Shown here one piece after another: positions 40,915 through 64,000 of a DNA stretch of 64,000 bases; position 1 is the first letter of the stretch, and each line of letters starts with the position of its first letter. The notes under the pieces were generated by a model, which saw nothing but the letters and a program-made list of their open reading frames with translations, searched no databases and had not been told where the DNA came from. This stretch comes from Glycera tridactyla (lineage: Eukaryota), in assembly GCA_965644265.1 (NCBI GenBank), contig OZ286474.1:64294001-64358000 (forward strand), given 5' to 3'. Made by a program: the position numbers and the translations under genes.

Positions 40915-41070
40915 TCTCTAGATAAGATAAGATAAGATAAGAGAAATTTTAATGCATAAGTTCAACATGATTACATATGGACCTCTAGGGTCGTATAACA
41001 CGCTTATGCAAACATATATACAGCAGGCATGGTGACTAGCGCACAATATATCAAAGATTCATTAGACTAT
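40915..41070 (-). mobile_element. Short LINE/SINE 3' end with (TCTTA)n tail
   Basis: (GATAA)4 on the plus strand followed by UTR-like sequence. Confidence 0.45.
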
Positions 41071-41125
41071 TGAGGGATGTCGCATGAAGATGTCGCTCCT
41101 TCTGCGTGATGTCGCTTGGCTTAAA

Positions 41126-41842
41126 TGTTAGTGTGAGTAGGTTGGATCACTTCTCTCATTGTGACTAGTAGCAGGGGTTGCCACAGACAAGTCAACGACG
41201 TGGAGTTCCAGTTCAACATTTATTCCCCAGTATACATCAGGCAGACATAGTATAAATACTATGATGTAATACTGTGGGGAAAGAAGTCTGTCAGCCCATG
41301 GAGTCCACACTCGACCAGTGTGACCCAGCTCAAGGAATGGTCTGCCGGTGCTTCCTTCTCCCACTTATTTATATGTTTCAGGCACACAAGTCATTACCAT
41401 AGGATTACACACTCATACACTTTATAGTTTTTTTATGGTATTTTTATGGTGCACAGGGAAACAGAAAAGCGGGGTTCTCACTAGCTCACCCTTCATAACT
41501 TACAGCAATCTGACTTTCATGTCTTACTTTATAGCTTCACATGGATATATCTTTTGCACTGAAGCGGGGGTCAGCACAAGTGGCTTGCTTCTTGAGTCCC
41601 ATTACTCAGAGTAATGGGTATGAGTAATCTCGAGAGCAAGGAGCAATAAAGTTTTATTGCTCGTGGGCTAATGCAGAAGACCTATTATCCCTATGGATAA
41701 GATTAGCCCGTCTGCATTCCAGTTTATGGCCAAAGGCGTAGAGAGCCATTATTTATGGGGCCATATACTGGCTCACTCGTGCGACACAGATGAAATAGTC
41801 ACAAGTTTAGTAATAGTTAGTATAAACGATTTGAGATATACA
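41126..41842 (-). repeat. Candidate 3' LTR of the Gypsy element
   Basis: Minus strand reads TGTA...TAACA; TATAAATAA box at about 41365-41373; AATAAA at 41219-24; purine run AAAGAAGAGA directly upstream (PPT-like). The partner LTR lies outside the window, so this is unconfirmed. Confidence 0.6.
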
Positions 41843-41862
41843 TCTCTTCTTTAGAAGCTAAC

Positions 41863-41923: not shown

Positions 41924-44900
41924 TTAGAAGCTAACGTCCTCGTAGCTTCCAGGTCCCATCCACCCAAGCCAGCCAGGGACGTCCAGCCACCCAAGACCAG
42001 TCAATGAAAGATAATGCTGCCTTGACTAGCCATAGGCCTACTGATCACCCTCACTGAGCCAAATGGCCAGTGAAGCCGGATCACCACGAGGAGTCATCTG
42101 TTTCCGAATCCAACTTTCAAATTCCGTGCCCAACAGCTTCCACTGGCTTCCCTCATTTCCGGCTACTTGCGCGAAATAGCTTGACCGGTTGTTACCAGCG
42201 TCCGTCATTTATCAGTCGCAATGCGAATTCGAGAGTGCTTTCGTATACGTCTGCGCCTCCAATACGGAGACCGTCGTTTACTTATGGCTTCACTCTTCTC
42301 GTACCTCATGAGCATATACATTTTCGATATCAACTAGGTATGTCTCGGGTTTCCATTCTGTTCCTGCCTGGCGAATCAGGTCTTCATCCAGACAAGGCCG
42401 AACGTAATCGTTTGACATTTCATATTGTCAGTAACCAACAAAAATTCACATAATCATTTTACATATATGATATAACACAGTTTTCATTTTTGGTTCTTTG
42501 TCCCCCTTCAGACCAATGAATGCCTTAGCGTGGGAGTATCAGTGAAGGTTTCCTCCACATTCGCCAGTCACATTCTTTTGACCATTTTTGGTTGGTAAAA
42601 ACCAACCAGGGGCTGTGTATCACTCTTGTTCCTGGTTAATTTGAATGAAACGTTCACTGATACTACCACGTAGAACATTCATTCAACCCCCATGAAATAG
42701 AGTGATACTTGGGTAAAAGTATGACAAATCTGGAACCCTCTTCAACCTTCATAGGCATACCATTGCCGGGGATATGCACCATTTCTCCCCAGTCTTCCTG
42801 CACCATTTCTGGCACTTGAAGGTCTCAAACAACCCTACCAACTCACAAATAGCAATAATCACCACTAGTCTCGAGTTTTCATGCAGAAATCGTCTGACCG
42901 GCTTGCGGATTTTAGAAGTTACACAATGCGAAGCCATTATGCCAGGTGATTTGGTACGAAATATCTAGGTCACTGCGGCGAGATCGACTCCGATCATGGC
43001 GCCACCCCATGTATAATCACGGAACCGATACCGTTCAGCCTTGCCACTGCCAATAGTGCCTTACAAGAGAAGGCTGATGTTTCTCTTTCCCTAGAGTGTT
43101 TTTCATTGATTGTTTGGCCGATAAAAATTGGCCAGGGAAGGGAAGAAGGAAGGGAGGAAGGGAGGAGGAGTTGACGGGAGGAGAAGGAGTGGAATTCAAA
43201 AGTCGCTGGTAAACACTGTCCATTTTACAGAATGGACACCCAGGAAGCAGCCTGTGCACCACCCAATCGAAGTCTTCACCTCAACTTGGTAGCCAGGAGC
43301 CTCCAAGGCTGTGACACCAGTGCCTCTGAGTCGGCATCAACCATACCAGCAAGGTAGCACCGCAAGTGGTATGGGCTTTGGCACCAACCTGAAGGGAATC
43401 CGGATCCTATTCAACATGGTGGTCTCACCCATGTCCAAACTACGGGGGTTGATAACCAGAAGAGTATGCCTCTGCTGCTTCCTTCTCCAACCCTTATAAG
43501 ACTCAGCCTCCTACTATCCAGGGTTTCGACAATCCACTGGAAATTCCTAATTTCATGTATTTCCGGTGATTCTCAAAGAGATCGTACCCATTCCTTCATT
43601 TCTTCTGATTCCCCTTTTGAAATGCTGAATTTTAGTATTTGTTTTGAAGTGATCGGCCCATTTTTAACAAAGATATTACTCAATCGTTTTCTGACTAAAA
43701 TCTATCTTCAGAGAATCTAACAAAAAATGGCCGTCGTCGATTTATCCGCCATCTAGCGGAGTCCTCCAGAACTAGGCGTGTCTACTTTTGATTTATTCGA
43801 CCAGTAAAGACCAGCCAGGAGGAAGAGGAGGAAGAAGGAGGAAGAAGAAGGGGAAGTTTCACCAGCGCATCAGAACTTCGGACTAATGCCAGAAATAGAT
43901 GAAGAGAAAGTCATGACGAATGAGCGAGTTCCACCCATAGTGCATGGCCATCATAGACACATCTCTAGCAAGCCGGAGAATGATACATGGTCAGAATGTA
44001 TGTCCCCTCCCGATTTAATCTCCACCTTCATACTCTAATGCTCCATGCCTACCCCCGGTCGTATGCTCAAAAATGATTTTTCCTTGTTCTAATATTTCCA
44101 TATGCTCTGCATCGCCAGTTCTGGATTTCTTTATGATCGACGTATTCTTCATGAAAAATTGAAAATTTTGGTTACTCTATCTTGTACCTAGGTTTCTCCT
44201 ATGACTCGCTAACTGGTTTCAAATGCGATTAAAATGACTATATGTTGGTATTTCCAAGTTGACCTGACGTTGACCTTTCGGTTACAACCGTCGCACCATC
44301 TCGTGAGCAGTTTTGGAACTCTTAACGCCAAATTCCCTCACTGGGAAGCGCTATTCCTCAACTGCGATTGTTTTTCGTTCCAGTCGGTTTCCCATGGCAT
44401 AAATGGGATATACATCTCGAAGACGCTCTGCGTCTTTATTAAAACCAAAGAAATGTGTTTTCACTCCAATTGACATAACGATAGCGTGTTCAAAACACAT
44501 ATTTCAGAGAATAGATACGAAATGACCAAAAGATTGGCAGTCTTGAGGAATCGCGTATCCGGCTACAGCTCCATTCATCCCTAACATGAAGATCGAACAT
44601 CTACTAATCGGAATGTTACCAAACCGTGAACTGGGTTATTTTCAGGATAGGTGACCCAGAAGCCAATGGCTTCATCAGTAGAGAACAAGAAGGATAAACA
44701 GATGGCAGGAATAGAGAGAGAGATACAAAGAGAGTGAAAGTTAGTCGTACCGATAGAAGAACACACAACATCCATTACATTAAATCACAACATTGACTGC
44801 ATTGCCACGCCAGGCAGACACGATGAAGACAGGTCATAAGTCAACCATACTTCCCCCTGCTATGGCGATACAGTCCATTTCCAACACACCCCATAGACAT

Positions 44901-46165
44901 GTCCACTCCATCAGTCTATGTACACACTTCACGCCCATAGGCATGTCCATTGGTCACCCATGTCCCTCTTGCATGTCCATACACACGCTCAAGGGAATTG
45001 AGTGATAAGGACTGATAAAAACCCATCATTCTCTCCGGGGTCCCACATGGAACCCCATGATTCATTCTGATAGTCAGATCTAATCATCTGGGTGAAGTCA
45101 AACGTTTCACATGGCGCTTGTATTAGAGTTCACCATCTTCAGCCTTTCCTTGGCTGGGTTTCATATGCAAAAAGGGTATCGTGAAATAGAAATCATTCTA
45201 GCAGTATATATACATCGTCCGGGATAGCTCCCCACGATTCCCTATCTACTAGTCTCTGCTCAGTCTAAGCTAGGGTGAACTATCCCACTGCTTTCTCCTG
45301 GTGATACAGTGATATCTTAATCTTTGGTTATCCGATATCCATGTGCCTCCCCGATATGCATGACCAGCACGTCCATTTGCGAGGTCAAGGGACCAAATCG
45401 TAGACCTCCTGACATACAGTTCACCATCCGTCCCTGGAACTCAAGCAAATGAACATACCAGTTAATAACCATACACAATCAACAAAACATAATGGAATCA
45501 ACAGGCATATCACTATATATCACCTTACAGATTTTACAGTAAAAGTTGGCCCACAACATCCCTTCAAAGACCCAGAAGATTTCTATTCTAACCTGTCTCT
45601 AATACAACGTAACACCAAAATTCACACAAAAATATAGTACCCTATCGAAAAATTTTCCCTGGTACGATAGGGGTGATAGGGTGCTACATACGTCAATATC
45701 AGGGGAAAAAGATAGGTCGCGGTAAGAGCACACATCTCTCTCCCTCACCCAACCGTACCATACACCTTTCATACAACAGATACGAGGATCATTAGCATAG
45801 CCACGGTCTTTATGACCTAACTTCAGGTCAAGCCCTGGAGTACAGCTTGCAACAGGACTCCTTATAACTGATACTACCAGATTCCTCCATTCAAACTTTC
45901 CCGCCAAAAATATGCAAGGCTCCCTGTTCACACATACATACGAAGCCCTGCCATTAATATCGGGTACATGGTCTTGATGACACAGTCTAGGAAGACAGGT
46001 CGAATATTCCTAGTCTGAGTCAACAATCATCTGCATCGTTCATAAGGTCTCCCCATGCATGAATAGTATCAAGATTGGTTCTATTGCGAAATATAAGGCT
46101 ACCTGAGATGGAACCACATGAAGAAGAGATATATGTATATTCATATATATACTTGTGAGATGCCA

Positions 46166-47814
46166 TTACATTCTGGTGATCTCATTTTTGGGATTCACCT
46201 TTCTACCATCGTTTTGCAACTCATATTTGTCTGTTCCATCTCCAGAAGCTGAGGCTAGCAGAGGAATGTTAGCATTATCAATAGCATTTTTAGGGGTCTG
46301 GTCCATAGCAGGGTATAGTACGTTAGGGGTTATTTCCGGGTTATATATCCCTTTACATTTCCAGCCGTCACAGTCCGGCTGGCAGATTTTTGGAATGATG
46401 TAAAATTTGCATCCAATCTCTATTCTGAATACAGCAGTAAAGCGACCTTGTAGAATACGTTTAACTTTCAAAGCTTCCCATGGAAGTAGTCTCAATCGCT
46501 CAGGCATGGGTAAAGGTGTATTCCCCATCCTATTTCCCACAATCAGACCCCTCCAAGAGGCAGACAGATACGACATGCATCGGAAGTCTTTTACCTGATA
46601 AGGTCCTGGGACTCCTAGTCCCATCAAATGATAATTTGACATAGACCCAGGAAGTTTCATGATCAAAATGTCCTGATATTCCACTAAGTTTCCTAATTCC
46701 AAGATCAGCTTACTCCTCGTTCTGCAGCGATGAGCGTACATGGTATACGCCAAGTATCCTATTATGACTAATAGTCCCGCCACAGCCAGAAGCGCCAATA
46801 CACCTACTACCTCGATATGCTTTCCTTCATAACACATGTCCTGAGTAAAGGTATCCACTTGGAAACCATCTATATGAGGGATCCTACTTTTTGTAGTGGT
46901 TGGAATGGTCCGTCCCAATAGACGTTCATAGAAGTCCTGAGGGAGGTCCTCCAGCCCATCTACAGCTGTAGGCTGTAAAACACCAGCTAAAGTATATGCA
47001 TTCATCATCTTTTCTAGCAGACAATACGAGCGCCTAGTGTATATAGCCAGGCCCATGGAGGCAACGGCTACCAAAATACTGAGCAATCCTAACACATTCG
47101 AAAGTGTGAAGAATTCGTCTGCTGAGTCTAAGTCCCACATACTAGCAGCAATCTGCTTGATAGGATTCACATCCAGCCCTTCCTTTGCTCTTTTCATCAC
47201 AGAAGCCAGTTGCATCGAATAATCGTAATCTCGATTCAAATTCAATTCAAAGTCCTCACTCACTTTGATTTCTGGCAATTTCGGTAGCCACTTCTCACTA
47301 TACAAAGTTTCACCATTCACCTCTTCAATATTTTTTCAAATCATAAATATGTGACAAAGCAGCTAGATTAATCGGATGTACGACAGTAAGCCCAGACGAT
47401 TTCTTCACACAGTTATTGATACGGGCTGGTAAAGCTGCTGCTGAGATCATATTAGATATATGAATAGTTCAACCGCATGGTCATTCCATTTGGCAATATA
47501 CGCATCCTTCTCGTTGTTTAGGTAGCTCAGCCCCACAGTGTTGAAAGATGCTCTCAGCGTTATGTACCAACACCTCACCATTTCCAACATCCACTAGGTC
47601 TACAACAGGCTCAGTTTTCTCAAATCTGAAACCACATAGCTCTCTAACCAAACCAGAATCATCTTGAAAAATGGCCGCCATACAAGATGGTTTATCCATG
47701 TCAAATATTTTCATAGATGATGAACACCTAAAAGCAGTTGTATCATCACATCTAGCTAATTCTTTATGAGTCATCTGAATATAATTCAGATTATCGTCAG
47801 ACACTCCGAGGTAT
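46166..47814 (-). pseudogene. env: env, C-terminal half (Cys-rich ectodomain, TM1, TM2, C-terminal domain)
   Basis: YLGVSDDN...CVYC...PARINNC...HPINLAAL; hydrophobic segments VLGLLSILVAVASMGLAIY and VVGVLALLAVAGLLVIIGYLAY; continues in frame from 55601. Confidence 0.82.
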
Positions 47815-47908
47815 ATAGTTCAAGCGAGGCATGGAGTAACCGCACACCAGTCCGCTCTGAGAAGAATCTAACCTCACGCAATATCAGCAGATGCTATAGC
47901 AACGAACT

Positions 47909-50173
47909 ATGGACAGCTTCAGGGACTATATCTCAGGAAGGAAAATCGATAACATCGAGGATTCTGAACGGAAAATGGAAGGCAAAATCAAGCAAACTGG
48001 TGAGAACTTGAGCGATAATAAGAGTACTACGGATGGCAAGTACACCCCCCTCCCCAGAATTGCAAGGAGTTGTAGTGCTAGATCTCCAACAGACCATGAC
48101 CCAGACAATAAGAAACAACGTAGTATAGATACTGACCACGAGCTGCAAAATGAATGTTCTAAAACAGCGAACAGTGATATTGATTCACCAGAAGATTCTT
48201 TTAATTCATTAAGTGTTGCTAGTGATGAAGAAAGCGATGAAAGTGTAGTAGTAGACGATGAAGTGGAAAAAGTGGATGAATTTGCAAAGAGGCCGCTTGT
48301 ACGACTGCCAGGCTCGAATCAAGTCTCGAATGGTTCGGGAATCAGCAAGCAAATCGAGATCGCAGATCCCGAAATGACCGCCGAGACAATCGACACTCAC
48401 CCGGAGGCGAACACCGATAAACAACTTGCAGCCGTCGGTCCCCACTGCAAATCCTCCCCGTGCTCCTCGGAATCATCGCGCGTGACCACACCGATAAGTG
48501 TCAATGAGAAGAACCGACCTGACGACCATGGCGGTCACGCTTCAATGAGCACAGATATTGACTTCCCCACTGAAATCGAATTCTCCCCTTCACCAAAACC
48601 AAATGGTGGGACTACCTTGATATGTCAACCTCCTAATGCCTTTGACATTGTGAATTTGCGCAAATCGCTGCGCGAGGATCTAACTGAGATAATACACTTG
48701 GAACTGAAAAGTGATGTCAAACAACAAGTCAAATCAGAATTGATAACCGAATTGAAAACAAGTATTGTACACGAGATAAAAACAGAACTTGTACACGAAG
48801 TTAAAAGTGATCTTGTGAAAGAAATTAGGACAGAACTAAAGCTCCTGACCCATGCTGAAGTCGACAGGTGTGTCAAATCTGAAATGAAAAGCATGATCAA
48901 AACAAAGAGCTTCCAAAAAGAACTGAAAGAGGAAATAGACAATAAACTCAAAAATCGAGACATGATAAAAAACGTGTGCAAGGATGTTGCTAAACAAGAA
49001 TTGGCTCCACTCTGCAAGAAGATCGTCAATGATGATGTTTCCCATAAAATAAACAGTGAATTGGGGAAATTTCAGACAACATGGAGAAGTGAACTAACGA
49101 CAACAATAGAAGACTCGCTAATCGATAACACCAACATGCAACAAAATATCATAAAACATGATGAACTCCTGGAGAAGCTTGGTGACATTGTGAAAAATCA
49201 ACAACAAGAGATATTATGGCTTGAGACGGAACTGAAAACGATGAGAGGAGACATGGATGATAAAATCGAAACACTAAATCAGGAGATCATACAATTGAAA
49301 GAAGAAGTAAAGAAGATGATGGATATTGGAATAACTCCTGATAGTAAGGACATCAACAAAATTCAAGAGAAGATAACCATCTTGGAAAGAGACATCGAAA
49401 TATTGAAAAAGAATGACCGTCTTAATGTCATTATTGTAGACGGCCTGACCTTCGAGCGTGATACTTCTCTCTTCGAGCAGCTGGTAAGAGTGTTCAATGA
49501 TATAACTGGCTTAAAGTTAAATGAAAACCATTTGGCTCAAGCAGTCCGCTTTGGACCTGTCACAAAGGGGAAACCTAGGCCTGTGAGAGTGAGATTTGTG
49601 AACCCCAATATCAGAAGGGATCTCTTGCAAAGAAAGTCAATGTTCCAAAAATCATCAATTTTTATTAGGGAACATCTCACGCCGAACGAAAATTCTATCT
49701 TTCAAGAGGCGAAACAAGCAAAAATTGACAAAAAAATACACCAAGTATGGACATCACAGGGGCAAGTTTTTGTTGCGAAAACAGAACATGAGCAAAAAAT
49801 CTCTATACCCAGCATTGCCAAACTAAATGATATAATTAAGAGTAAAGCCAAGCAGCCGAACGATGTTGGATTCAAACCTAGACGAAGGTGGAACCCATTA
49901 AAGGGAAATCAAAATCCACCACCAAATTCAAGAATCACAGACACTACCACTGGAGCCTCAAATGCTGAGCTAAAATCGCGAGAAAACACTCAGAATAAGT
50001 CAAATCCATGGACCAATATCCCATACAAAAATGAGGCGACTATAAAATCGCGGGATGTAAGTAGCGCCGGCGGAGCAAATCAAGCCCATACTAGCGCGAC
50101 CTTGTCAGATGGGCTAAACCTGGCGAATCCGTTCGATACCCTCGGCAGCCTAGAAGAATCTCACCGACCTTAG
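47909..50173 (+). CDS. LINE ORF1p, 754 aa (disordered N-terminus, long coiled coil, RRM-like/FP25K-like domain, disordered tail)
   Basis: Uninterrupted ORF; VIIVDGL...RFGPVTKGKPRPVRVRF...FIREHLTP...VWTSQGQV is homologous to ORF1 of family A. Confidence 0.9.
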   Translation: MDSFRDYISGRKIDNIEDSERKMEGKIKQTGENLSDNKSTTDGKYTPLPRIARSCSARSPTDHDPDNKKQRSIDTDHELQNECSKTANSDIDSPEDSFNSLSVASDEESDESVVVDDEVEKVDEFAKRPLVRLPGSNQVSNGSGISKQIEIADPEMTAETIDTHPEANTDKQLAAVGPHCKSSPCSSESSRVTTPISVNEKNRPDDHGGHASMSTDIDFPTEIEFSPSPKPNGGTTLICQPPNAFDIVNLRKSLREDLTEIIHLELKSDVKQQVKSELITELKTSIVHEIKTELVHEVKSDLVKEIRTELKLLTHAEVDRCVKSEMKSMIKTKSFQKELKEEIDNKLKNRDMIKNVCKDVAKQELAPLCKKIVNDDVSHKINSELGKFQTTWRSELTTTIEDSLIDNTNMQQNIIKHDELLEKLGDIVKNQQQEILWLETELKTMRGDMDDKIETLNQEIIQLKEEVKKMMDIGITPDSKDINKIQEKITILERDIEILKKNDRLNVIIVDGLTFERDTSLFEQLVRVFNDITGLKLNENHLAQAVRFGPVTKGKPRPVRVRFVNPNIRRDLLQRKSMFQKSSIFIREHLTPNENSIFQEAKQAKIDKKIHQVWTSQGQVFVAKTEHEQKISIPSIAKLNDIIKSKAKQPNDVGFKPRRRWNPLKGNQNPPPNSRITDTTTGASNAELKSRENTQNKSNPWTNIPYKNEATIKSRDVSSAGGANQAHTSATLSDGLNLANPFDTLGSLEESHRP

Positions 50174-50560
50174 TGAACAATGGCTCGATTAATAAGCGCT
50201 ATACGAATTAATGACAGATTAGCAGGCTTCGAGAATCCGGTAAGAACGAAGGGATATATACAATTGAAAGGCGGGGTGTGGTTTGTGCTCTATATCTCGG
50301 GTTTAGTGATCAAATCGGAATCGATACCGTGGGATTTCCCTCATCTTAATGACGTCATCACTCCATATATGGTAGTTAATTCCAAACACCATATGGTATT
50401 GAACTTGCGGGATTTTCCTGATAATAGTGACGTCAGAACCCCATATAAGGAAATTATTGTTAAAATTAGGAGTTCCGCGTTTTAACTCCATACCATCGCA
50501 TGAATACAACTGCCACAACCATGAATGAATATATTATAATGATACTATTAATTTCTGCAG

Positions 50561-51460
50561 GCTGACTGGACATCATCACTGAGACTAGCCAAGAGTCGAG
50601 TCCAAATTCCTCCAAAAAGATGTCCTATATACAGAAGACGAAAACAGCTAGAAGGGATCGAATACCCTGAGGTTCTCGTCACAGGCTCCAGCCACGCTGT
50701 CCATACTGGCTGTTATATCAAGAACCTATCTACTGGTGACGCAATGGGAGAAGTCATGTCAAAATGGAAATTCAGAGGCTTCAGTGGTAGCAAGTGGACC
50801 GAAATACAAGAACACCTACATGGTCGTTTTGGTGATGATCAGCGTAAACATGATAAATATGGTAACACTATTCAATCCCTGACATCTGATGGCTATAGGC
50901 CTAACTATGTAATCATCATTCTTGGAAGTAATGATGTTGACCAGTTTAATGTTGAAATAAGAAATATCTCAAAACAAATCACCAACCCATTGGTGAGGAA
51001 TACAGAAATTAACAGAGAAAAAATTGCTCGTTTTGGTAAGATTAAAGCAAAAGTTCTCAACTTGCTACGACACCTAGAATACCTGTATCCTGAAGCACTT
51101 ATCATAACAATACCAGTCCTGTGGCGCCCTAAGTGGTGCGATGAAGCAAGATCCCTGGCACTTTGGATTGATCATCTGTTCGTGATGGAACTGAAGAATA
51201 AGCACCTTGATGTTGGTATTCAGCAGAATGTTAAAATGCTACAAATAAACCAATTGTTTGTACGCCCATATAAGAATACCCCACTTGAACAGACCCGTAA
51301 ACAAAATCGTAAACATGCTGCTAAATTTGGTGAACTACTAAATGGCATGTTGGCATTTGATCGGGTTCATTTGAACAACTATGGCATGCGTATTCTTAGT
51401 AGACACATAGTGGGCTCAGTATTGGACCATTGGATTTCTAAATCTGAAACTAACAAATAA
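50561..51460 (+). CDS. SGNH/GDSL-type esterase of LINE family B, intact frame beginning at a splice acceptor
   Basis: Frame is open from 50552, upstream of the listed ATG 50744; VTGSSH (I), GFSGS (II), ILGSND (III), DRVH (V); preceded by tattaatttctgcAG ending at 50560. Confidence 0.87.
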   Translation, partial: ADWTSSLRLAKSRVQIPPKRCPIYRRRKQLEGIEYPEVLVTGSSHAVHTGCYIKNLSTGDAMGEVMSKWKFRGFSGSKWTEIQEHLHGRFGDDQRKHDKYGNTIQSLTSDGYRPNYVIIILGSNDVDQFNVEIRNISKQITNPLVRNTEINREKIARFGKIKAKVLNLLRHLEYLYPEALIITIPVLWRPKWCDEARSLALWIDHLFVMELKNKHLDVGIQQNVKMLQINQLFVRPYKNTPLEQTRKQNRKHAAKFGELLNGMLAFDRVHLNNYGMRILSRHIVGSVLDHWISKSETNK

Positions 51461-52351
51461 AACGGTCAGCACAAATCTCACTGCCACACGACGAATGATA
51501 GATTGGGGATAATGGGTTATCACAGCAAATAACATGACTTGTTTGTATCTAGTGTGCGTGCTTACTCAAAGTGCGAAAAGACTACGCCATTATCCATTCC
51601 AGATGACCAGATGGGTGGTTATATGAAATGAATAATTGGGAAGCTGGACCGGTTTTTCTCGAGGTATAGTGATCTGCTTTTGTTTCTGTTTTCTATATTT
51701 TATTTTTATATATTTTTGCTGCCCGAAAGGTATTGTCAAGGTCGTAGATGCTGGATGTCGTTGTGTGTGATGGTGTCTCGTGTCTTTGGTCCTCTCCTTA
51801 AAATGGGGTCCGCCAATAGGCAATGGGGTACTATCGCATACATTCGGCATCAAATCAGTCTCTATAGCTTTGAAAATGTTTCTCTGGGATCTTGAAACAG
51901 CTAATATATATTTTTATTTAATGGCATGAATTCTGATTGACTGGTGCTCAGCTGCTGGCGTATAGGATGGACAACCATGCACTGGTCCTCTCCGTAAAAT
52001 GGGGTCCGCCGGAACATTGGAAACTGGCTATCCTGCATGCCATCATCGGGTCAAATAACCATTCAACCACCATTCAAATAAACCATTCAATCGATTAAGA
52101 ATAATTTGTATAGCCTATATATTTTTGAAATTATCAAATGGGTATTTGGAGATGGAGAGGATATGTATGTACTTGGGAGGAGGGGGGGGGAGGGAATAAG
52201 AACTAAGATCACAGTTGTCACTCACTTGAAAGAACCGAATTGAATATACTATATCTGCTACTATCTTAGATATGATTGTATAGCTTCTCAGGGACAATAT
52301 GATATTTTCCACTTGCATCAAAGCTAAAGTGCATCATCACTTTAATCTGAA

Positions 52352-55233
52352 ATGAACATTTGTATAAACTCATCTAAAGAATTAGCCGAATTATCTGGTA
52401 TCAAATATGCATATCTGAATGTCTGCAGTATTGTCCGCAAAATTGAAGACATAAGAGTTTTCTTGTTTAGGAGTAAGATAGACTTGCTAATTATTGGGGA
52501 AAGATTCCTGAATACTTCTATATCTGATTATGAGATTCAGATCAATAATTATAATATGTATAGATTCGACAGGGATTTAGGACAGGGAAAACGAGGGGGG
52601 GGGGTCTACTTGTGTATACTAGAATAGACAGAGATTTTGAATTCATTAGTATTTGGGGTCTATGTACGCCAGATCTAGAATATGTATGGCTAAAATTGAA
52701 CCTGAAGGATACAAGACCAACATATATATGTGGCTACTATCGTCCACCTGACGGAAATGTTATAAATGCCATTGACCTACTTGATAATAAGTATAAAGAT
52801 GTCATACATCTAGGGAATCATGATGTAATTTTTCTCGGAGACACGAATATAGATTTGGCATCTAAAAATAGACACTCTGAAAAATTAATAAATTTTTTGA
52901 AAGAAAATCACCTTACGCAGGAGATAATAAATCCAACTCGTATCACGAGTAAATCAAAATCGCTGATAGATCATATTATCACAAATAACCGAGAATTATA
53001 TGCTCGATCTGGCCAAATAGATATTGGTGTCTCTGATCATTCTATGATATTCACGATTCGAAAGAAGGGCCGATCATCTAAAAGAAGTCACTACATACAT
53101 TTGAGAGATTATAAAAACGCAGACTTTGAGAAAATAAATGCTGAGATTTTAAACATAGATTGGAAATTTCTGAATAATCTTGATGATATAGATTCCACAA
53201 TGAAAGACTTCTACATGAAAATTGGGCCTATTTTTGAATCGCATATTCCTGTCAAAAGAGTGAAAGTGAGAGATGATGCACCAGCATGGATGACTGGGGA
53301 GTATCATTGCATGGTAGATGAACGTGAGAAGGTAAGCAAACAGAAAAGACTTGACCCTACCCCTCAGATATGTTTAAGAAAGAAAGAAATTCAGAAAGAA
53401 ACCAAGAAATTGAAAATCCATCTTCAACGTAACTTTTTGAAAAGCAAACTAAACGAAAATCATGATGATCCTAAAACTCTGTGGAAAACTATAAGACATT
53501 TTTGGCCATCAAATAAACAAAACTCATCAATTAATAAAATAAATGGTAAAACAAGTGATCTTGAAATGTCTGAAGAGTTAAATAAATTTTTTGGAACCAT
53601 TGGAACCTCCCTATCAGAAACAATTGGACCTGTGGACCTCGATCCCACATCACTTATTAGACAGAAATATCACAATACCTTCTCACTATCAGAAACCACC
53701 AAAGATGCAATCCAGGAAATTATTGATGATATTAACCCGCATAAGGCTGGAATGGAAGATGTCCTCTCTGGTAAGTTTCTTAAGGGCATATCAGCATCTA
53801 TTTCACTACCGCTATCCCACATTTTTAATAAAAGTATACGTGATGGTAAATTTCCCACAGCTTGGAAACAAGCGACGATTAAGCCTTTATTTAAAGAAGG
53901 ACAGAAATCTGACCCTGCAAATTACCGTCCTATAAGCCTGTTAATACCTGCTAGTAAATTACTAGAGAGGATAATACAAAATCAGGTATCTTCTTACTAC
54001 GAAAGAATGAATCTACTGTGTCGAGAACAGTCGGGTTTCAGAAAGTTTCACTCCACTGGGACCTGTTTGATAGATTTTTTGGATGGCATATATCGAGGTA
54101 TAGATGAAGGAAAAGCAAGTGGAGTGATCTTCCTGGACCTGAAAAAAGCTTTCGATATGGTGGACCATTCAATCCTTTTACAGAAATTATCGGATTACGG
54201 TTTTGATCCACGGTCTGTACAATGGTTTGCCAGTTATTTAACCGATCGCGTATGCATGACACGAGTTAATGATGTTACATCAGGTCGACTGCCAATCAAG
54301 TGTGGGGTACCACAGGGATCAATACTTGGCCCTAGTCTTTTTACAATCTATATTAATGACCTTCCTACTTTCCTAGACAACGTGAAGACCAATTTGTATG
54401 CAGATGATACTGCCATCTCAGTCAGAGGAGATAATGCAAATGACTTAGAAATAAAGATGAATGATAACCTCTCTAAGGTTGCAACATGGTTGGCAGCAAA
54501 TAAACTGTCACTAAATGTAAAGAAAACGAAAGCGGTTGTTTTTGGTACTCGTAATATGATAAAAAATTATGGAAATTTAAATATTATAATAAATGAAACT
54601 AAAATTGAGATCGTAAATGAAATGAAATATCTGGGGCTCGTGCTTGATTCGCTGTTGACCTTTAACACTCATACTGAATATGTACGTAAAAAAACTATCG
54701 GCAAGATCAGGTTTCTTGGTAGACTAAGACCAATTTTAGATCAATCAACGACCATGATGTTATATAAAAGCCTGATCTTGCCGATTATTGATTATTGTGA
54801 TATCATATACTGTGGGACGAGTCAGAAAAGCTTACAAGATATACAAAGATTACAAAACCATGCCCTCAAGGTCGTCGCACGAAAACCCAAACGCACAAGT
54901 ACTATAGAATTACATGAGGAATTGAATATGCCCTTATTAGAAAAACGTCAAGAGCACCACACTCTTATACAAACAAGTAGAATGCTAGACGAAAAGTCGC
55001 CTGGAAAATTTAAAGATTTTTGTAAAATAAAAGCTAATCGACATTCTCACCAGACAAGAGCCAGTGCGAAAACATTGCTTGAAAAACCTGATACTAGATT
55101 GAGAATGTGTGAAAATAACTTTACAGTGCGTGCAGCAAAAATTTGGAACAAGTACTGCGAAGACTTTGAGGACTTTGAATTATTGCCTTATGATCAATTT
55201 AAAGACCATGTGAAACAATTTCTGCATTTATAG
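52352..55233 (+). CDS. LINE pol (APE plus RT) with a single frameshift in a G10 run at 52595-52604
   Basis: YLNVCSI, IIGERFL, GGGLLVY, CGYYRPP, GDTNID, SDHSM, NYRPISLL, FLDLKKAFD, PQGSILGP, YADDTA, KYLG; 873 codons open after the run. Confidence 0.93.
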
Positions 55234-55600
55234 TAGACTTACTCTTTAAACTTTTGCTATATATTGACCAAAGACGCCTATTTATCGGACATGAACATTG
55301 ACGATACACATCTCACCTCTATTACGATACCAACCCAAAAGGAAAGAAGTTTATAATCTTTGTAATGCTCACCTTATTATTTTATTTTTTCAAAATTCAG
55401 CATTTATTAAGTTAGAAAATGTTTTTGGATTTCTTGGTTATTATACTGTATTTTATTTTTATTTTTACATATTTGTCACTTATATGTGCGGATACTAACC
55501 CATTGCCATTGTCACTAACGATTTACTGGAGAGGGCTGCTACAGGCAGTTAATTGTATTAATCGTTATAAAATAAAGGTATATCTATCTATCTATCTATC

Positions 55601-57123
55601 TATTCAACAGGAGTCTTCAGACGACTAGTCTGGGTTGAGTCATCTGTAATAGGAGTATTATGGATGGTCACAGAGTACAACCTAAAATCTTTTGTCAATG
55701 CTGACAACGGGAAGTCCAAAGAGACCATTAGATACTCCTCATTAGTCCTAAAATAATTCACCCGTCCATATCGATAATAAAACTGAGGAGATAATTCCGT
55801 GAGATGAAAATAGGGATAATCTCATCTCATTTGCTCCTGCAGAGTCAAGATAGTATCTGTCAAGATTGCGTGATTCACCAAATAGGGGCTCAACTTCCCT
55901 CTTACTAAATCATTCACTGCTGCCATAAGATGGTCAATCTGAGGGCTCAATGTTTGCATTTTTTCTATCATGCTCGCAAGCACTGAACTGGAACTAATGC
56001 TGTACTGCATCACCCTCCAGAGGCGGTTGTCCACATGATGGGACAGGTCCTGCAGCTGTCCCTGCAATTCCGTTTGTAGTGCTGAAATGGTCCCTGCCAC
56101 GTTGGTAAATCGTTGGGACACTACATCCATGAACGAAGCAGTTTCACTTTGAAATTTGGTGAAGTGCCTCGCCGCTGTGAGTTGCTGATCTGTAGCAAAC
56201 TTCACCACCCTAGCCAGTCTCTCAACATCTTCGTTGATGGATAGTCCGAATACGTGTTTCCCTATCCAAGCGAACGGATTCCATCTCTTAACTTGACTAT
56301 TACACCTCACCACAGGTATGTACTGTTGAACTATTTCTCCCATCTCACCCAGCTGTATATCTACCTGCATAGCTAATTCCAAATAATGGTTATATTGTGC
56401 TAATTTATGATCCAAAATATTATTGACTTCATATGAGTCCTTCTGGGTGATATTCGCCAAAATCAAGGGTTCTGGTGCCTGTTGGGCTATTCTATCTTTG
56501 ATAGAACGTCTGGTTCGTTTTCCCTGTCCCCATTCATCCATTAGAGATGAACATTGAGGGTCTGGGCATTGTCTCTCAAATTCCTTTATACAATCAGGGT
56601 TATTATTTTCACAAGCGTCTCTAGCAGCTCGTCTTGAGCATACCAGACGTTTCTGTCTACCAGAGGATGTGAGATCCTTATCGATATCACTTATATCCTT
56701 CTTCATACACGCTTGATAGTTTACTACATAAGCCTGATAGGTCTGAGTATATCACCCATAGCTACTCCAGTTCACATAAGAGGCTAGATCCAAAATGGCA
56801 GTCCAAACTTTATTCGCATCTCTTACCATTTGGCGTTGAAACTTTCTCAGAAATCTATCTAACGAGTGGTTATCAGTACAATGCTGGTCCGTGCATGTTG
56901 TTTCTACATCTCTGAACAATTGCCTGCTAACTTCAGGAGGTATATCTACACAAAAGATATGTGTCCAACTTGAAGAAGCTAGATATAGTGTTTTCAAAGG
57001 TTGAAAACTCACACCATAGTTTGGTCTACTTACTGTATCTAGAACCCCATTGACTTCCATTTTGATATTCGAGATATCCAAATTAGATAAGGCCATAAGG
57101 GCAACTGTCCAAACCAGCGCCAT
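55601..57123 (-). pseudogene. env: env, N-terminal half (signal peptide, furin-like sites, fusion peptide, heptad repeat); two in-frame stops
   Basis: MALVWTVALMAL signal; RPNYGVSFQP...WTHIF; KRTRR and VKR/WNPFAWIGKHVFGLS; heptads; GKLSPYLV. These features resemble class I F-type fusogens (baculovirus F, errantivirus env). Confidence 0.85.
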
Positions 57124-57133
57124 CTCTCGGCTT

Positions 57134-57150
57134 CTGCAACACCAAAAATT
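57134..57150 (-). promoter_or_regulatory. Candidate splice acceptor for env subgenomic mRNA
   Basis: Minus strand ttttggtgttgcAG/aagccgagagATG, 10 nt before the env ATG. Confidence 0.5.
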
Positions 57151-57366
57151 ACGAAACTGGTTTTTAACTTCCGACTATGACCATTTTAGTATTACACTCT
57201 GCCCCTTACATTGATATATATATTTCTGCCATCTCTCTTTCAGATCAGTTGAAATCCAGCTAAAACCGTCTGACTCAAACTCTATCACAGATTCCTACTG
57301 CTGAAGTCCCTGTTTTCTCCATACTCGTTGCACACATTCATCCTCTTCTCTCACAAAACTGTTACT

Positions 57367-58056
57367 ATGGATCAAGTGGTTCTGCAGGAATCGATTCTGG
57401 ATCGCCTGGTTTACATTCTACAGGATCTGGATACACATCATGGTATCTCCCGGATTGATGTTCTAGCCGGGACGGATATCACTGTTGCGATCCTGAATCA
57501 ACAAGGATCAGGGGCACCACCTATGGGACATAGCATTTCTAGTCAATCCCAGCCTCCTCATCATACCATTCATTCAACTCTATGGTCGCTGGGAGACCAT
57601 TTGCTAACGACCACTCGAAATCTGGATGTGCCTCTTCGTTATGAGGAGCGCAGAGACCTGCAAAGGGTGATATCTCTGTTGTCTGAGATACCCTCTGTTG
57701 AGATGCCTCCCGCTCCAGGGAGAATGGACAATCCTCCCTCCAGACCTTCTAATACTGTCCGGCCTAGAAGGTTATCCATTACTTCATCCACAGCAGCTCA
57801 ACCTAGATCTGAGGAGGGATCACCCCCAAGTTCACCCTTTTCAGATATTGCAATGGATCCTCCCCCACTTCAAGATACTCCGTCTCCCGGCCATATCTCA
57901 CCTGCCCCCAGTATCGATTCCTTTCCACATTCGCCTAACTTCCCTCCACCAGCCTGGGGACATGATCCTCCAATGCCTCTGCTTATGGAAGACAATGACT
58001 CTAACGTATCTCTCCCCAGCCTAGAAGAAGGAGAGATACCCCCATCTGAGGAATAA
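57367..58056 (+). CDS. Antisense ORF between pol and env, 229 aa from ATG, Pro/Ser-rich acidic C-terminus, unknown function
   Basis: Uninterrupted although the flanking sense genes carry stops; ends SLEEGEIPPSEE. Confidence 0.55.
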   Translation: MDQVVLQESILDRLVYILQDLDTHHGISRIDVLAGTDITVAILNQQGSGAPPMGHSISSQSQPPHHTIHSTLWSLGDHLLTTTRNLDVPLRYEERRDLQRVISLLSEIPSVEMPPAPGRMDNPPSRPSNTVRPRRLSITSSTAAQPRSEEGSPPSSPFSDIAMDPPPLQDTPSPGHISPAPSIDSFPHSPNFPPPAWGHDPPMPLLMEDNDSNVSLPSLEEGEIPPSEE

Positions 58057-58712
58057 GGGATATAAACTGTTGGGATTGTATGTGTACATATCTGTTTATA
58101 AAGGAAGGATCTATCTACATTATCCCTCCTATTATCATGAGACTCCCCTATACTTCCATGAACCTTTCCCCAGACGCGTCATGGACTCTGGAGAAACATG
58201 GACGATGTCGATGTTTCACCACGCAGCACCCTACAAGGTGAGTTTACAGTCACATCTTTTGCTAAGTAGCTTAAGACTCAAGATGGCAGAGCCTACGACC
58301 TGGCCTAGTCGATTTTTATCACAGATAAGTTGTAAGGTACCTTATATACATTCATATGATAAATACAAGATAGCTCTCAGTGAATCCAGTTGGCTTCTAC
58401 GATCCCTATCGTACTGATTCCGGCCTACATTCGTGGCCAAGTCATAATGTCAGAAGATGTATTTGAACACCCACAAAGATCTCACATATGACATCCGGTC
58501 ATCGCTATCACCTAACATGTCCTTGTTACGGACATTCCTCATCCCTTGGTTACTGTGAATTGCATGATGGTCTACACATACAAGTATCCGATTCCACAGT
58601 CACTTATATACATCTATGAGTATTCCCCTACCTAGGAACGATATGAGCTCAAATTAGGATTTCTAATGGGGCTGCATCGAGATGTGTATGAACATCAAGC
58701 AAATTCCTGGCC

Positions 58713-58733: not shown

Positions 58734-58854
58734 TGGTCACATCTAGAGGCGCTATTGATTTATACCTTGATATTCCTCAATGCAGCTTGTCTTCTCGTAA
58801 CCGGCCCGGTTAAGTGCACCCTATCTGGATTTGCTGGTTTATGAACAGTCTTCG

Positions 58855-59987
58855 CTACCTGCTTGACCTGGGTTCTATTTCTTTGGCCAGATCTGCATGG
58901 ACTCTGGGTTCAGGATTCGCATGAGGGTCCTTAGAAAGGGTCCTTATCCTGCTATCGTCTTCGTCTCTGAATAACGATAATTTATTGCCATGTATAAGAG
59001 ATCCCAGAGACATGTTTGTGTGGGAATCTTGCAACTTATCCAAAACTCCGCCAAGAGTATCGGTGATACGATAGGGGCCCAAATGTTGGCTATCAGTTTT
59101 TCCTACTGCTTGTCCCGCTGGTCTGGCGGTTTTCATCCAGACAAGATCACCGATTTTGAAAGGCATCTAACCCACTTGGTATCGTTTCTCATATACCTCC
59201 TTATACCTCTTTGCAGAAATTTCTATATTCTTTCGGGCCATTTCCCTATGATAAGTAAGTTCTGGCAGCAAAGCCTCCAGGACTTCTTGGTCCTTGTCTG
59301 ATAACATTTCTGGATCTCTCACATGACAATATTCCCCAACCGAGGTATCAACCCCTGTCGCCAAAAACATGGGGGTATACCCTGAGGTCTGAGAGGTTGA
59401 AGTGTTTAGGTTCAACCTAACTACTGGCAGATATTGAACCCAATCATTGGTTTTACTCACCAACATCCTCATCATTGCTAGAATCGAACTATTCACTCTC
59501 TCCACTTTGCATTAGATTCGGGCCTATGACTACTGGTAAAAATACGTTTGTATCCCAAGAGAGATGCTAAGGTCTCCATCAGGATACTTCTGAAACTCTG
59601 GTGCCTATCAGTGGTTAAAATAACTGGGCAACCATGCCGACATATCCACTCACGAAAGAACGCTTTTGCAAGTGTTTCCGCCTTCTCATTTGGTATTGCA
59701 GCTAGCTCAACATAAGACGAAAATGAGTCTATCATCACCAGCAATTTAGTATGTCTTGTTTAAGGGTCTGCCGGAAGGGACAGGACATCCATATGGACAT
59801 GATACCAAATAGGGAATATTTGGCGCAATTCCAATGGAGACTTATAAGAATTATAAGGTCTCTTACCACTTCCGCATGTCTGGCAACTCTGTACGTATGC
59901 TTTCATATCTGCAGTCATCTTCGGCCAATAATACTTATTACGTACACTTATAAGTAACTTCGAGGCGCCTCGATGGTATCCCATCAT
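58855..59987 (-). pseudogene. Integrase (H-H-C-C remnant, D,D-E core, GPY module) in pieces
   Basis: YYWPKM...CQTC; VHMDV; IDSFS; LTTDR; HRPESN; ERVN; LGPYRI. Confidence 0.92.
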
Positions 59988-60984
59988 GTAAGTCTATTAC
60001 ATGGCTGCGAAACTGGATAGGTAGGCAGAGTTGCAAATAGTGATCGTCCCTCTCGCGGGAACCCGGCGTACTAAAAATTCTGTACATCAGGTCTTCTGCA
60101 CCTAGGATATGATGCTGATGGTCTCTCAATACGACTTTCATTTTCTCAGATTCTTTTGGTAGGGTTCCAAATTTCAAATAGTAATACATCTCTTTGAAAT
60201 CTGGACTTTCTTGTTGCATATCCCTCCACAAATGTGAATCTGCTTTAAACTGTTTCAGTTGTTCTTCTAAAAGGCGTGGTCCCAAGAAAGCATGTATCTC
60301 CTCATCGGATTCGCCATCTTTGGTTCCTTCCACGATTTCGTCTGAAACCATAGCCTCTTTCTGAGAAGTTTCCACCGCCTGCTTTGTATAAACATCACGA
60401 TTATTAGAGGTATGTCGGGTTTCATTTGCTATTTGACTTATAGTCTTTTCCCTAGGCATATCACCACCTATAGTCTTCACAAACATTACTATCGTTTCAT
60501 CCAACGGTGTCCCTAAATCCCTTTGGGTATAGTTTGTTTTGATGGATTTCTCTTCTGGTATCCTAGATAGTGCATCTACAGCCTCGATGGTTTTTCCAGG
60601 GGCATGCGTGATCTCTATGTCAAGACCCTGGATTTCCAGAGCCCATCTTAGGAGATTTGGTGCTGAAGAAGTCCTCAAATTCTTGAGATATCGTGCAGTC
60701 AAGTTATCAGTGGTGACATTCATTTTCTGTCTCCCCAATAAATGACGATATAAGCGTATTGACAGAATCAGACTGAAGGCTTCTTTGGAATTTATGTCCC
60801 AAACTCGTTGTTGTTCATTCAACTTTTTAGAGAAGAATGCCACAGGTCTGAGGCCATCATTGTCGACCTTCTGACTCAAAATGGATGATATACTATGTTT
60901 GGATGCATTGGTAGTCAGGAAGAATTCCAGATCCAACCTTGGATAGTGCAAGACTGCATTTTTCAAAAGTTCGGCACTTTCCAT
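59938..60984 (-). pseudogene. RNase H and linker
   Basis: TNASKHSISSILSQ, RPVAFFSKKL, KEAFSL, VTTDN, RWAL, HAPGK, VDALSR. Confidence 0.9.
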
Positions 60985-62128
60985 CCCACAGAAAAGGTGT
61001 ATCTTTTCGAGTAAGATTCGTAATGGGTTCGGCTATTTCTGCATACTTCTTGATGAATTTCCGGTAATATCCGGTAAGACCTAGCCATCTCCGGACTTCA
61101 GTCACGTTGGTCGGAGCCGGAAATTTCTGAATAGCCTTTACCTTTTCTGGATCTGGCTCAAGACCCTTTTCAGTCCAAATGTGACTTAAAAACTTGAGTT
61201 TCTTGCGTGCAAAATCACATTTTCTTGAGTGTCTGGTGAACCCATATTGTCTGAACTGATTGAACACTCTGGCCAGATGGACCAGATGGTCCTTAAAGGT
61301 CCTAGAAGCCACGAACACGTCATCCAGAAAATTCCAGACATACGTCTGTCCCAGACGACTAAGAGCTGCACTCATAGCTCTACTATATGTAAATGAAGCT
61401 AACGAGAGTCCAAAGGGTAATCGAAGAAATTTGTAGCTACCTTTCCCAGTTGTGAAAGTTGTACAGTCTTGACTATTTTTCTCCATAGCTATCTGATAAT
61501 AGCCAGATAGCATATCCAGAGAGGACATCCATCGTGGTGCTTGCCTGGCTATTGATTCGTATATATCGTCAAAAGTAGGCATCACGAACTATCCAGCCTC
61601 CTTCTGAGTCTTAGCATTCAGTGCTCGATAGTCAATGCAAGCTCTGTATAACACAGAACCGTCTGGCGCAGGATTTTTCTTTTTGACCATTACCACTGGA
61701 GACTGCCAAGAACTGTCAGACTCGACAATCAATTTAGCGGCTAGTAACTCCTGTATCTGTTCATCCAGAGATTCTTGCTTCTCTGGACTCAATTTGTATG
61801 GTCTCTGGCATACAATTTTTGCATCAGGCTCGAGTTTGATTTCATGTTCCACACATGTGACCTTTCCTAAATGTTCCGTAGAAGTGGCAAATATATCACG
61901 ATTCGCATTCAATAAGTCTACAAGTTGTCTTTTCTGTTCTCTGTTACAGTCTGACAAATCAAGAATTTCGTGCCATTCGATTTCTTCAAATACACAATCA
62001 CCACATAATTCCAGACCCAGCACGTTTTCTTTGAAAGCCTCTTCATTAAAGTAATTAGGCGGAACGGTTACGGTCGCCTGCTGATTTGATGTTACCATCT
62101 GCATAATGGCCATTACCTCTCCGCCCAC
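60893..62128 (-). pseudogene. Gypsy reverse transcriptase (in-frame stop at 61589)
   Basis: QRPYKLSP, WQSPVVMVKKK, RACIDYRALN, LDMLSGYYQI, TTFTT, LPFGLS, FLDDV, FLSH. Confidence 0.95.
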
Positions 62129-62179
62129 ATTACATGGATCAATGATCTCAATGTCATCATCGAAAGTGAGGCGTGCCAG

Positions 62180-62902
62180 TTACATGGAGGGTTGAACCTT
62201 TAATGGTTTATCACCAGAGTTCGCCACTTTTACTACGAGAGACCCTGACTCACTGATAGTAACTGAGCATGGATCCAACTGTAAGTTCACAGGTGTATCT
62301 GCATTGTTACTTGGGACTACGAAACCTTGGACTGATTCTACATCACTTTCGCCTGTGAAACCAGGAGAAAATAATGCGCTCAGCCAGTATTTATCGGCAA
62401 CTTGTAGCTTGATTGTTATGAATGTATGTGGTGGGATTGTGATATGATCTGTACTTATGACATCGATCGCCCGGTCAATAGGAACATGTGGCAGTATAGT
62501 AGCAATCAGTGGAGTTCCCTCAAAGGAGACAATACCCTGTTCAAGGTCTATAACCGCTCGGTGGTTCTTTAAAAATTCCATACCTACTATCATAGATACT
62601 GGCAGACCCTCAGCTACCATCAGGCCCACCGAAATTTCACGGCCTGCAATTTCAATAGGAATTTCCATGTGTCCTAAAATTGGAATTTGTTTCCCTGAAG
62701 CGTCTGCTAATTTCAAAAATTTACCACCATCTATGGGCAAATAGCACTCCAGGTTGAATTGCTCCCACTGATTCTTACTAATCAGACTTGTGGTGGCCCC
62801 GGTATCTACAAGAGCCCTCGCAACCATGCCATTATGCATCACACATATGAGACTACCATCTAGATTCAGAGAGAATTTTGTACCATCATTTTTAGCAAAC
62901 AT
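62180..62902 (-). pseudogene. Retropepsin-type aspartic protease and spacer
   Basis: ALVDTGATTSLI and MIVGMEFL motifs. Confidence 0.92.
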
Positions 62903-62950
62903 TATATTTGGATCACCACTTTTTGTCTTTGGAGGAGTGAATATGGAAGA

Positions 62951-64000
62951 TCATTGCAACATTTGATTATACCAACATGATTCGGTGGGATGATTTTTCC
63001 CACAATTTTTACATGTTGGGGGGCATGTCTTGTCCATGGCACTTTTCCTGTGAGGACAATCTGCCATGAAATGTCCCTTGCAACCACAGTGAAAACATAC
63101 AGCAGCTACTATGCCAGTGGAGGAAGAGGAGAAGTTATTAGCAGGTTTTGTGAATTTCGCATTTGGCTTAACTGTGTCTTTCTCAGGACAATGTGGGGCA
63201 TAATGTCCCACTTGTTGACACTTATAGCAGGTTACTGAAGCCATTTGTTGGACGAGACTTTCCCCCTAATCCTACTATTTTGTTGAAATTATCATTATTA
63301 CCACCATTGCCGTTTTTACCGCGGCCTTTGCCATGACCTCGGCCAGCACCTCTTTTCATGCCTCGGCCTCTTGAAATTCTGCGGGAAAATCCGGAATTTC
63401 CAGAATTTCCCGGTTGAGCATACATGACTGTATCCTCAGTCTGCTCAACATCGGCCTTTGTAGAGGCCTGTTGTTTCTGAGTAGTCGCACTGGCGACTAT
63501 TCCATCTTCATATCTAGAATCTGAAAGTTTCGCAGATTTCGCTGCTCGTATGAAGTCACTTAATGTCTTTGGCCCTCTGGTGGTGATTAATTGCCTTACA
63601 GCCTCTCGGGCTCCTCTGACAATAACGAACATTACATATCTTCCTTCAATAGGAGAGAACTCCTCATCTTTTTCATTAGTATAGACTTTTCTGGTTATTG
63701 ACATCACCTTTCTGATAAATTCTTCTGTTCGTTCTGCCCCTTGACGTAATGCGTCCAATTTGTATAATTGGTCCCAAGGTTCAATGCCTAGTTTACCAAA
63801 TTCTTCAATAAATTGGGCCTTAAGTCTCGCCGGTTCTTTGTCCTGGAGAGATTCGTACCACATAACTGCCTCATCTCCAAGAACTAGAGGTAAAATTTCC
63901 TCTGGTTTCATACCTTTAAAGGTACAGTATCTTTCTAGTCTGCCTTACCAAACGTGGGCATCATCTTTGGCCGCATCAAAAATGGGTAATTTCAAAATAC
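62951..64000 (-). pseudogene. gag: gag (capsid-like region, RGG-rich stretch, three zinc knuckles), truncated by window edge
   Basis: LGDEAVMWY, QFIEEF, LRQG; CYKCQQVGHYAPHC, CFHCGCKGHFMADC, CKNCGKNHPTESC. Confidence 0.88.

Follow-up and report, generated by a model that had tools for sequence, protein, structure and literature searches.

Can a mobile element whose sense genes are broken hold a genuine gene on its opposite strand, and what would such a gene do? The question is raised by a 64,000-nt stretch of DNA (hereafter, the window) in which an earlier note described a 229-aa plus-strand ORF inside a Gypsy element, ending in a LEEGEI word, and proposed that it encodes an accessory protein engaging host ARS2. 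We find the ORF where it was claimed, together with the Pro/Ser-rich tail attributed to its product (Table 1), and we consider below whether it is a gene, how it would be expressed, and what its protein may do.

The host element and its antisense ORF

The host is a Gypsy element with an env gene, and the ORF fills its integrase-env slot in antisense orientation, head-to-head with env; the distance from the ORF start to env is 244 bp. Without an inserted LINE the element measures ~17 kb, and its LTR pair flanks gag, pol and env, as in env-carrying Ty3/gypsy elements generally. The pol order is PR-RT-RH-IN: Pfam models identify gag, PR, RT and RH, whereas the integrase pieces of the window element have no Pfam match and were placed from their position and their homology to the pol of sister elements. 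The window env falls short of the Baculo_F cut-off (Table 1); it shares ~23% identity with the env of another locus (L083) that passes, and cleavage and membrane segments are recognizable by eye.

The sense genes are broken, as had been stated. Env carries five stops and one frame change, pol four stops and four frame changes, and gag in the window copy is divided between two frames. The ORF overlaps none of them (env begins at 57123 on the minus strand, and pol homology stops near 58760-58855), and it is no shadow frame, as was also claimed, because the exact antisense frame on the sense strand has eight shared stop variants against none in the ORF. One argument did not survive. The openness of the ORF amid broken gag, pol and env had been offered in its favor, but a single copy would stay open by chance ~26% of the time at the element's own decay rate (14 breaks in ~2350 env and pol codons, applied to 229 codons). 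Openness while the other genes are broken is therefore no evidence by itself; selection across the whole family is.

The element and its surroundings have further peculiarities. The LINE within env has three ORFs: a 757-aa ORF1, an SGNH/GDSL esterase-like ORF (50552-51460), and an endonuclease-RT ORF. An unusually long 4.3 kb (41841-46165) separates env from the 3' LTR; this stretch shows no codon periodicity and contains short blocks conserved between the two families described below, for example 45428-45487 at 88%. At two other loci (L077 and L091), DIRS-like elements adjoin or sit inside errantivirus copies, as judged by eye from RT/RNase H and tyrosine-recombinase-like ORFs. Elsewhere in the window, positions 8001-14000 form a 6-kb tract with strong C and A skew and a GC content above that of its surroundings.

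Table 1. Coordinates of the antisense ORF, its signals and its host element in the window.
Feature	Position	Strand	Remarks
Antisense accessory ORF, 229 aa, ATG to stop	57367..58056	+	without lysine
Predicted folded N-terminal domain, ~residues 8-110	57388..57696	+	common to families A and B
Pro/Ser-rich tail, likely disordered	57697..58053	+	PxSP..PPPxWxxDPPxP block common to family B
LEEGEI, match to the ARS2-recruitment consensus	58021..58038	+	residues 219-224
Antisense 3' splice site: branch-point-like word, pyrimidine tract, AG	57203..57243	+	29/29 A, 17/17 B
Antisense 5' splice site AAG/GTGAGT, 181 nt past the stop	58235..58243	+	GTGAGT in 29/29 A, 17/17 B, 3/3 older copies
Sense 3' splice site immediately ahead of the env start	57128..57146	-	TTGCAG in 27/29 A; also 4/4 B copies examined
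3' LTR	41045..41840	-	96.8% identical to the 5' LTR outside the window (L051 2117-2918)
Gag (zinc knuckles), protease, RT, RNase H and integrase region, broken	58763..63944	-	gag extends past the window
Env 5' part, broken in the window copy	55603..57123	-	
Env 3' part, broken	46166..47813	-	weak Baculo_F match, E 0.046, under the cut-off
LINE inserted in env, foreign to the element	47814..55602	+	~7.8 kb

Selection on the ORF in family A

A DNA search of the genome (40 of 78 candidates scored) yielded 30 loci of the window element's own family, hereafter family A, and removal of one exact duplicate left 29 copies. Because these are the best DNA matches, the open fraction leans towards intact copies. 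The ORF is open in 25 of the 29, one of which has lost the ORF end, and each of the other four has a one-base deletion. Variants shared by at least two copies comprise 122 synonymous, 44 nonsynonymous and no stop changes, giving a pN/pS of 0.12, and the other five frames of the same region contain 8-27 stop variants. Two stretches of env give 0.13 and 0.09 in family A copies, and the adjoining spacer gives 0.64-1.00; selection on the ORF is as strong as on env. The constraint extends along the whole protein (pN/pS 0.11 for residues 1-110 and 0.14 for the tail), pairwise dN/dS is 0.12-0.14 at dS 0.44-1.0, and indels within intact copies preserve the frame.

An orthologue in a sister family

A protein search of the genome, in which 150 of 3179 candidates were scored, separated the matches into 80 rows of family A (74-100% identical) and 70 rows of a second family, hereafter family B (38-42%); 69 of the 70 listed family B matches are without an internal stop. 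The family B orthologue is antisense and lies in the integrase-env slot in the 16 listed of 17 loci taken. It is longer, at 317-333 aa, and full length in 16 of 17 copies, with a pN/pS of 0.21 and no stops; over residues 1-110 the ratio drops to 0.08. The A and B proteins are 40-42% identical, rising to 44-47% over residues 1-136. Family B is the larger of the two, pol and env are open in most of the copies taken, and relative to the window element its RT is ~90% and its env ~65% identical. The gap between pol and env is ~1.7 kb in family A and 2.1 kb in family B. No third family with an A-type tail appeared among 150 scored of 327 candidates.

Conservation of the ORF and its dN/dS across sibling elements had been named as a check, and the outcome favors the ORF: it is open in most family A copies, its amino acids are kept, and it has an orthologue in family B. 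On these codon patterns, the ORF is almost certainly a real gene under selection.

Family B also carries PSAP at residues ~112-115 of one protein (L031 aORF), where family A has PPAP; we take PSAP to be a Tsg101-type late-domain word.

Splice signals and expression

A strong plus-strand acceptor had been placed upstream of the ATG at 57243. It is there: the AG falls at 57242-57243, leaving a 123-nt leader before the ATG. Upstream of it the branch-point-like word is ACTAAT in 17/17 family B copies and CTAAC in 15/29 family A copies, and the flanking leader has diverged between A and B while the acceptor has been kept. The antisense donor beyond the stop is the sole perfect MAG/GTRAGT on the plus strand within 41001-64000. 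The simplest reading of these signals is one 994-nt exon containing the entire ORF. Alternatively, the donor may terminate exon 1 of another antisense unit, because an AT-rich box lies ~140 nt before it in both families.

The block from 58090 to 58290 is conserved between A and B and holds the AT-rich box, the perfect antisense donor and the word CAAGATGGC, which is kept in 17/17 B and 12/29 A copies and which we take to be YY1-like; possibly this block is a second antisense promoter. At 41251-41258, the antisense TATA-like word TATAAATA is present in 15 of 16 family A LTRs and missing from the single B LTR examined. There are several candidate donors for an upstream antisense exon, none standing out. 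A genome search for spliced retrocopies found none, a weak test in which a control pattern matched only three copies, and Rfam gave no match. With an acceptor and branch-point-like word kept in two families, expression of the ORF from a spliced antisense mRNA is likely. An antisense promoter in the 3' LTR is known from HTLV (cited in PMC7264820).

The LEEGEI motif and ARS2

The LEEGEI word is present as claimed, not quite at the terminus, since five residues (PPSEE) follow it. Its EEGEI, residues 220-224, equals exactly the published ARS2-recruitment consensus (E/D)(D/E)GE(L/I/V) (PMC9402713; bioRxiv 2023.07.25.550453), and it is preceded by EDNDS in an acidic setting that, judging by composition, is probably disordered. 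According to these reports, motif carriers exclude one another from the ARS2 zinc finger, to which they bind with affinities of 0.16-9 uM (bioRxiv 2023.07.25.550453; PMC9402713), the bound peptide bends round its glycine and FLASH has the EEGEI form (PMC9402713), and carriers can recruit decay in addition to export (bioRxiv 2023.07.25.550453). Ars2 is also described as repressing transposons in the fly germline (PMC12123415).

How surprising is the match? Shuffling the protein 200,000 times produces the motif in 0.22% of cases, or in 0.02% if the leading L is required, and the consensus occurs three times in 127,996 six-frame window positions. The motif was chosen after the fact, so these figures understate how readily a motif of this sort would turn up. 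Within family A it is well kept: all 29 copies have LEEGE, and I follows in 28/28 having that codon, one motif being cut by a deletion. No invariant run of the protein is longer than residues 215-225, which contain LEEGEI, and synonymous changes occur inside the motif. Three older copies (74-81% identity) read DLEEGEL, DLEEGEI and, in one case, a stop within the motif; the I/L exchange still fits the consensus while the flanks differ. However, 35 of the last 45 residues are invariant in family A, and this region is conserved as a block, so the motif is not singled out.

Conservation of the motif itself, which the earlier note had likewise made a test, thus holds in one family and fails in the other. 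It is whole in 28 of 29 family A copies and in two of the three older ones, but at the corresponding site 16/16 full-length copies of family B have LEE[S/N]DV (LEEGEIP against LEESDVP), which lacks the glycine at the bend. No ARS2 consensus occurs anywhere in six whole family B proteins, nor in 22 proteins of the unrelated type described in the next section. Given LEESDV in the sister family, ARS2 binding, if it occurs, would be confined to family A. Of the proposal of an ARS2-engaging accessory protein, what stands is a selected accessory gene with a motif in family A that fits the published consensus and persists into older sub-lineages; a general role in ARS2 binding is not supported, the motif being absent from the other three families. 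On the host side, the genome has an ARS2 exon (PF04959) with the zinc finger, reading GKKFKG...NKH, whose three lysines are spaced like the required K719/K722/K734 of human ARS2 (a mapping by spacing), and the zinc-finger surface looks intact; bivalve molluscs are among the best named matches of this exon. We put binding of the family A tail to ARS2 at somewhat less than even chances.

Two further candidate words were rejected. A second EEGEV at 43844 is shared by the window and only 1 of 20 sibling loci, amid frame-breaking indels, and a WG Argonaute hook reads WD in two older copies.

A different protein in the same slot

We surveyed the slot at 20 loci picked from 64 Baculo_F matches, and then at 13 more chosen to enrich for two distant families, C (L085, L086, L089, L094, L099-L111) and D (L090, L092, L093, L096, L097, L104-L107, L112), whose RT is ~32% identical to that of the window element. 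In C and D, too, the integrase-env slot contains an antisense ORF, with dN/dS of 0.03-0.11 over five pairs. In this enriched sample, 22 of 33 loci carry the C/D type of protein and none the A/B type; several other env families among the loci surveyed are without such an antisense ORF. The A/B and C/D proteins show no profile similarity (probability 0.3%), have different predicted topologies, and belong to well separated clades in an RT tree of 13 rows, all from this genome. Family C has a TATA box ~75 nt before the ATG, which it appears to use as a local promoter element in place of an HBZ-like 3' LTR promoter, and in both C and D a donor lies close to where the ORF stops.

The C/D protein runs for ~160-180 aa before this splice donor, with a predicted helix-strand-strand repeat, and the predicted second exon would overlap the end of integrase. 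A third version of the antisense ORF in this slot, broken, occurs at one locus (L079).

Composition, relatives and predicted folds

The family A antisense protein is acidic, and inspection of its sequence showed no classical lysine-rich nuclear signal. In the window copy it has no lysine in 229 residues, against 6.0 expected from base composition. Lysine is likewise zero in 15 of 17 family B copies (10-11 expected) and in the unrelated family D protein (5-6 expected), and family C proteins have 2-3; lysine counts are unremarkable in the env and pol proteins of B, C and D. One lysine is common to 6 of 29 family A copies, so the lysine-free rule is not absolute. Lysine deserts are described as a guard against ubiquitylation, and as enriched in parts of the ubiquitin system and in disordered proteins (PMC10169902).

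Outside this genome, the A/B protein has no homologue by word search, Pfam, PDB sequences or phages, and an ESM Atlas search gave no usable match. Three profile-search matches were rejected as tandem-repeat proteins aligned over short stretches only, and a single metagenome locus as a bacterial chance match. An alignment search with the C/D protein found no homologues either. No Pfam family matched the window ORF at E 0.1, neither TRP28, which is a Pfam model, nor bZIP, and no RNA- or DNA-binding domain was detectable in the protein.

The AF2 model of the A/B protein is a low-confidence helix-strands-helix arrangement (pLDDT 50), for which Foldseek returned nothing at E 0.001. Its best fold match is capping protein (Z 7.0, rmsd 5.0, 117 aligned), none of the matches rising above background, and many rows are UBC/RWD/UEV-type domains (Z 4.3-6.3, not significant for a model at pLDDT 50). 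The C/D model (pLDDT 64) has common ferredoxin-like layers (best Z 6.9, rmsd 2.4, 71 aligned), also not significant.

A proposed mechanism and its alternatives

We propose that splicing would join 57244 to an upstream exon originating in the 3' LTR region or at an internal promoter, and that the resulting mRNA would encode a small stable adaptor. The folded N-terminal domain, kept in both A and B, would provide the core function, and the acidic tail of family A would dock on host ARS2, competing there with the degradative partners ZFC3H1, ZC3H4 and ZC3H18 for one site. Their displacement would blunt nuclear RNA surveillance and protect the ~17-kb genomic RNA, and the lysine-free composition would shield the protein from ubiquitylation. 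For this mechanism as a whole, from spliced antisense mRNA to a tail that docks on ARS2, we put the probability at about one in three. The donor 181 nt past the stop counts against it: the RNA could be a target of nonsense-mediated decay, or the donor could belong to another transcript.

A competitor that we regard as equally probable keeps the accessory adaptor and discards ARS2. The protein would work through its folded domain and the PxWxxDPP block, and EEGEI would be a chance-like form of a patch, LEExx[IV]P, that serves some other partner. The N-terminal domain and the DPP block are indeed what survives at ~42% identity between A and B; the two tails align at the patch itself, with the motif confined to family A; and look-alike motifs arise easily in these tails, PSAP having appeared in B only and WG having been lost in two older copies. 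Two observations resist a chance patch, namely the rarity of the exact consensus among shuffles (0.2%) and the older-copy exchange of I for L, which stays within the consensus although the flanks change.

Retroviral Vif and Vpx are adaptors that deliver host factors to a ubiquitin ligase, and the antisense protein might similarly hand over ARS2 or some other host restriction or silencing factor to such a ligase for destruction, its own lack of lysine sparing the adaptor. This we consider unlikely. The lysine-free composition of A, B and the unrelated D proteins would suit it, as would the enrichment of lysine deserts among ubiquitin-system parts (PMC10169902) and the UBC/RWD/UEV-type rows of the fold search. 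Set against these, the model is of low confidence with no fold match above background, no ligase-docking motif was seen by eye, disordered proteins often have lysine deserts too, and family C retains its 2-3 lysines.

Negative self-regulation is less probable still. The protein would recruit ARS2 or surveillance to its own RNA or LTR, or the antisense RNA would dampen sense transcription, leaving copies latent. Latency has been proposed as a role of antisense retroviral genes, and antisense ORFs or RNAs as regulators in plant elements (PMC7264820). The capacity of motif-bearing proteins to recruit decay would fit, and since the gene overlaps the region from the env acceptor to pol, sense and antisense transcription must interfere; the acidic protein, with no detectable RNA- or DNA-binding domain, fits poorly. 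That there is no gene at all, the frame being open by chance or constrained by RNA or DNA signals, would agree with the chance openness of a single copy and with the failure to find homologues outside this genome, but it is already refuted by the codon pattern, in which two families, both saturated at silent sites, retain their amino acids despite unrestrained synonymous variation, and by the frame-keeping indels of intact copies.

Comparison with known systems

Antisense ORFs between pol and the 3' LTR (aORF-3R) are known in plant and fungal Ty3/gypsy elements, including maize Grande gene23, rice RIRE2, Retand TRP28 and Botrytis Boty (PMC7264820; PMC11963269). The gene described here resembles those of the Grande/Retand type in its orientation and general position, its presence in most copies and its lack of database relatives, and a regulatory role has been proposed for those ORFs (PMC7264820). 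It differs in its animal host, in the presence of env, in lying between pol and env and head-to-head with env, in having no TRP28 or other Pfam domain, in its candidate host-binding motif, and in being lysine-free.

The element itself resembles the invertebrate 'ancient errantiviruses' surveyed by Chary and Hayashi (PMC13524379) in its LTR-gag-pol-env layout, putatively F-like env, multiple copies and recent activity. That survey describes three ORFs, and the window element has a fourth, antisense one; the words 'antisense' and 'accessory' are absent from its main text (PMC13524379). Its filter rejected POL-ENV gaps above 1000 nt (PMC13524379), and would therefore probably miss families A and B with their wider gaps. 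In Oikopleura Tor4b, the space between pol and env holds an internal env promoter, and no antisense gene is described there in the portion cited (PMC4402516). In a literature search that covered subscription papers thinly, we found no report of an animal Gypsy element with an antisense gene in its pol-env gap, and none of an EDGEI motif encoded by a transposon or virus.

Among complex retroviruses, HTLV-1 HBZ and HIV-1 ASP are similar in being antisense accessory genes of LTR elements, as this gene is, with likely splicing. HBZ is a bZIP protein, and unlike HBZ and ASP the protein described here has no bZIP and no homology to them, and its gene overlaps no sense gene. With FLASH, ZFC3H1/Red1, ZC3H18, ZC3H4, NCBP3 and PHAX (ELM LIG_ARS2_EDGEI_1), the family A protein shares the exact consensus in an acidic, low-complexity setting, and its leading L recurs in ZC3H18 DLEEGEV. 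Unlike these proteins, it is encoded by a mobile element, has a single motif that is lost or absent in the sister orthologue, and has no zinc finger or RNA-binding domain.

If the motif does bind ARS2, the transposon would have built a mimic targeting the hub where capped RNAs are assigned to export or decay. The tails of families A and B, LEEGEI and LEESDV, form a natural contrast pair for such binding. A broader and rather doubtful extension is that invertebrate errantiviruses keep a swappable antisense slot filled by unrelated lysine-poor proteins, the family A one mimicking the ARS2 motif to disarm cap-linked nuclear RNA decay. Animal env-carrying Gypsy elements have been described as three-gene elements, and at least four families in this genome have a fourth, antisense gene selected as strongly as env, which makes them 'complex' in the retroviral sense. 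Antisense extra ORFs are already known from plant and fungal Gypsy elements and from complex retroviruses; what is new here is their occurrence in an animal, env-carrying element, in the slot between pol and env.
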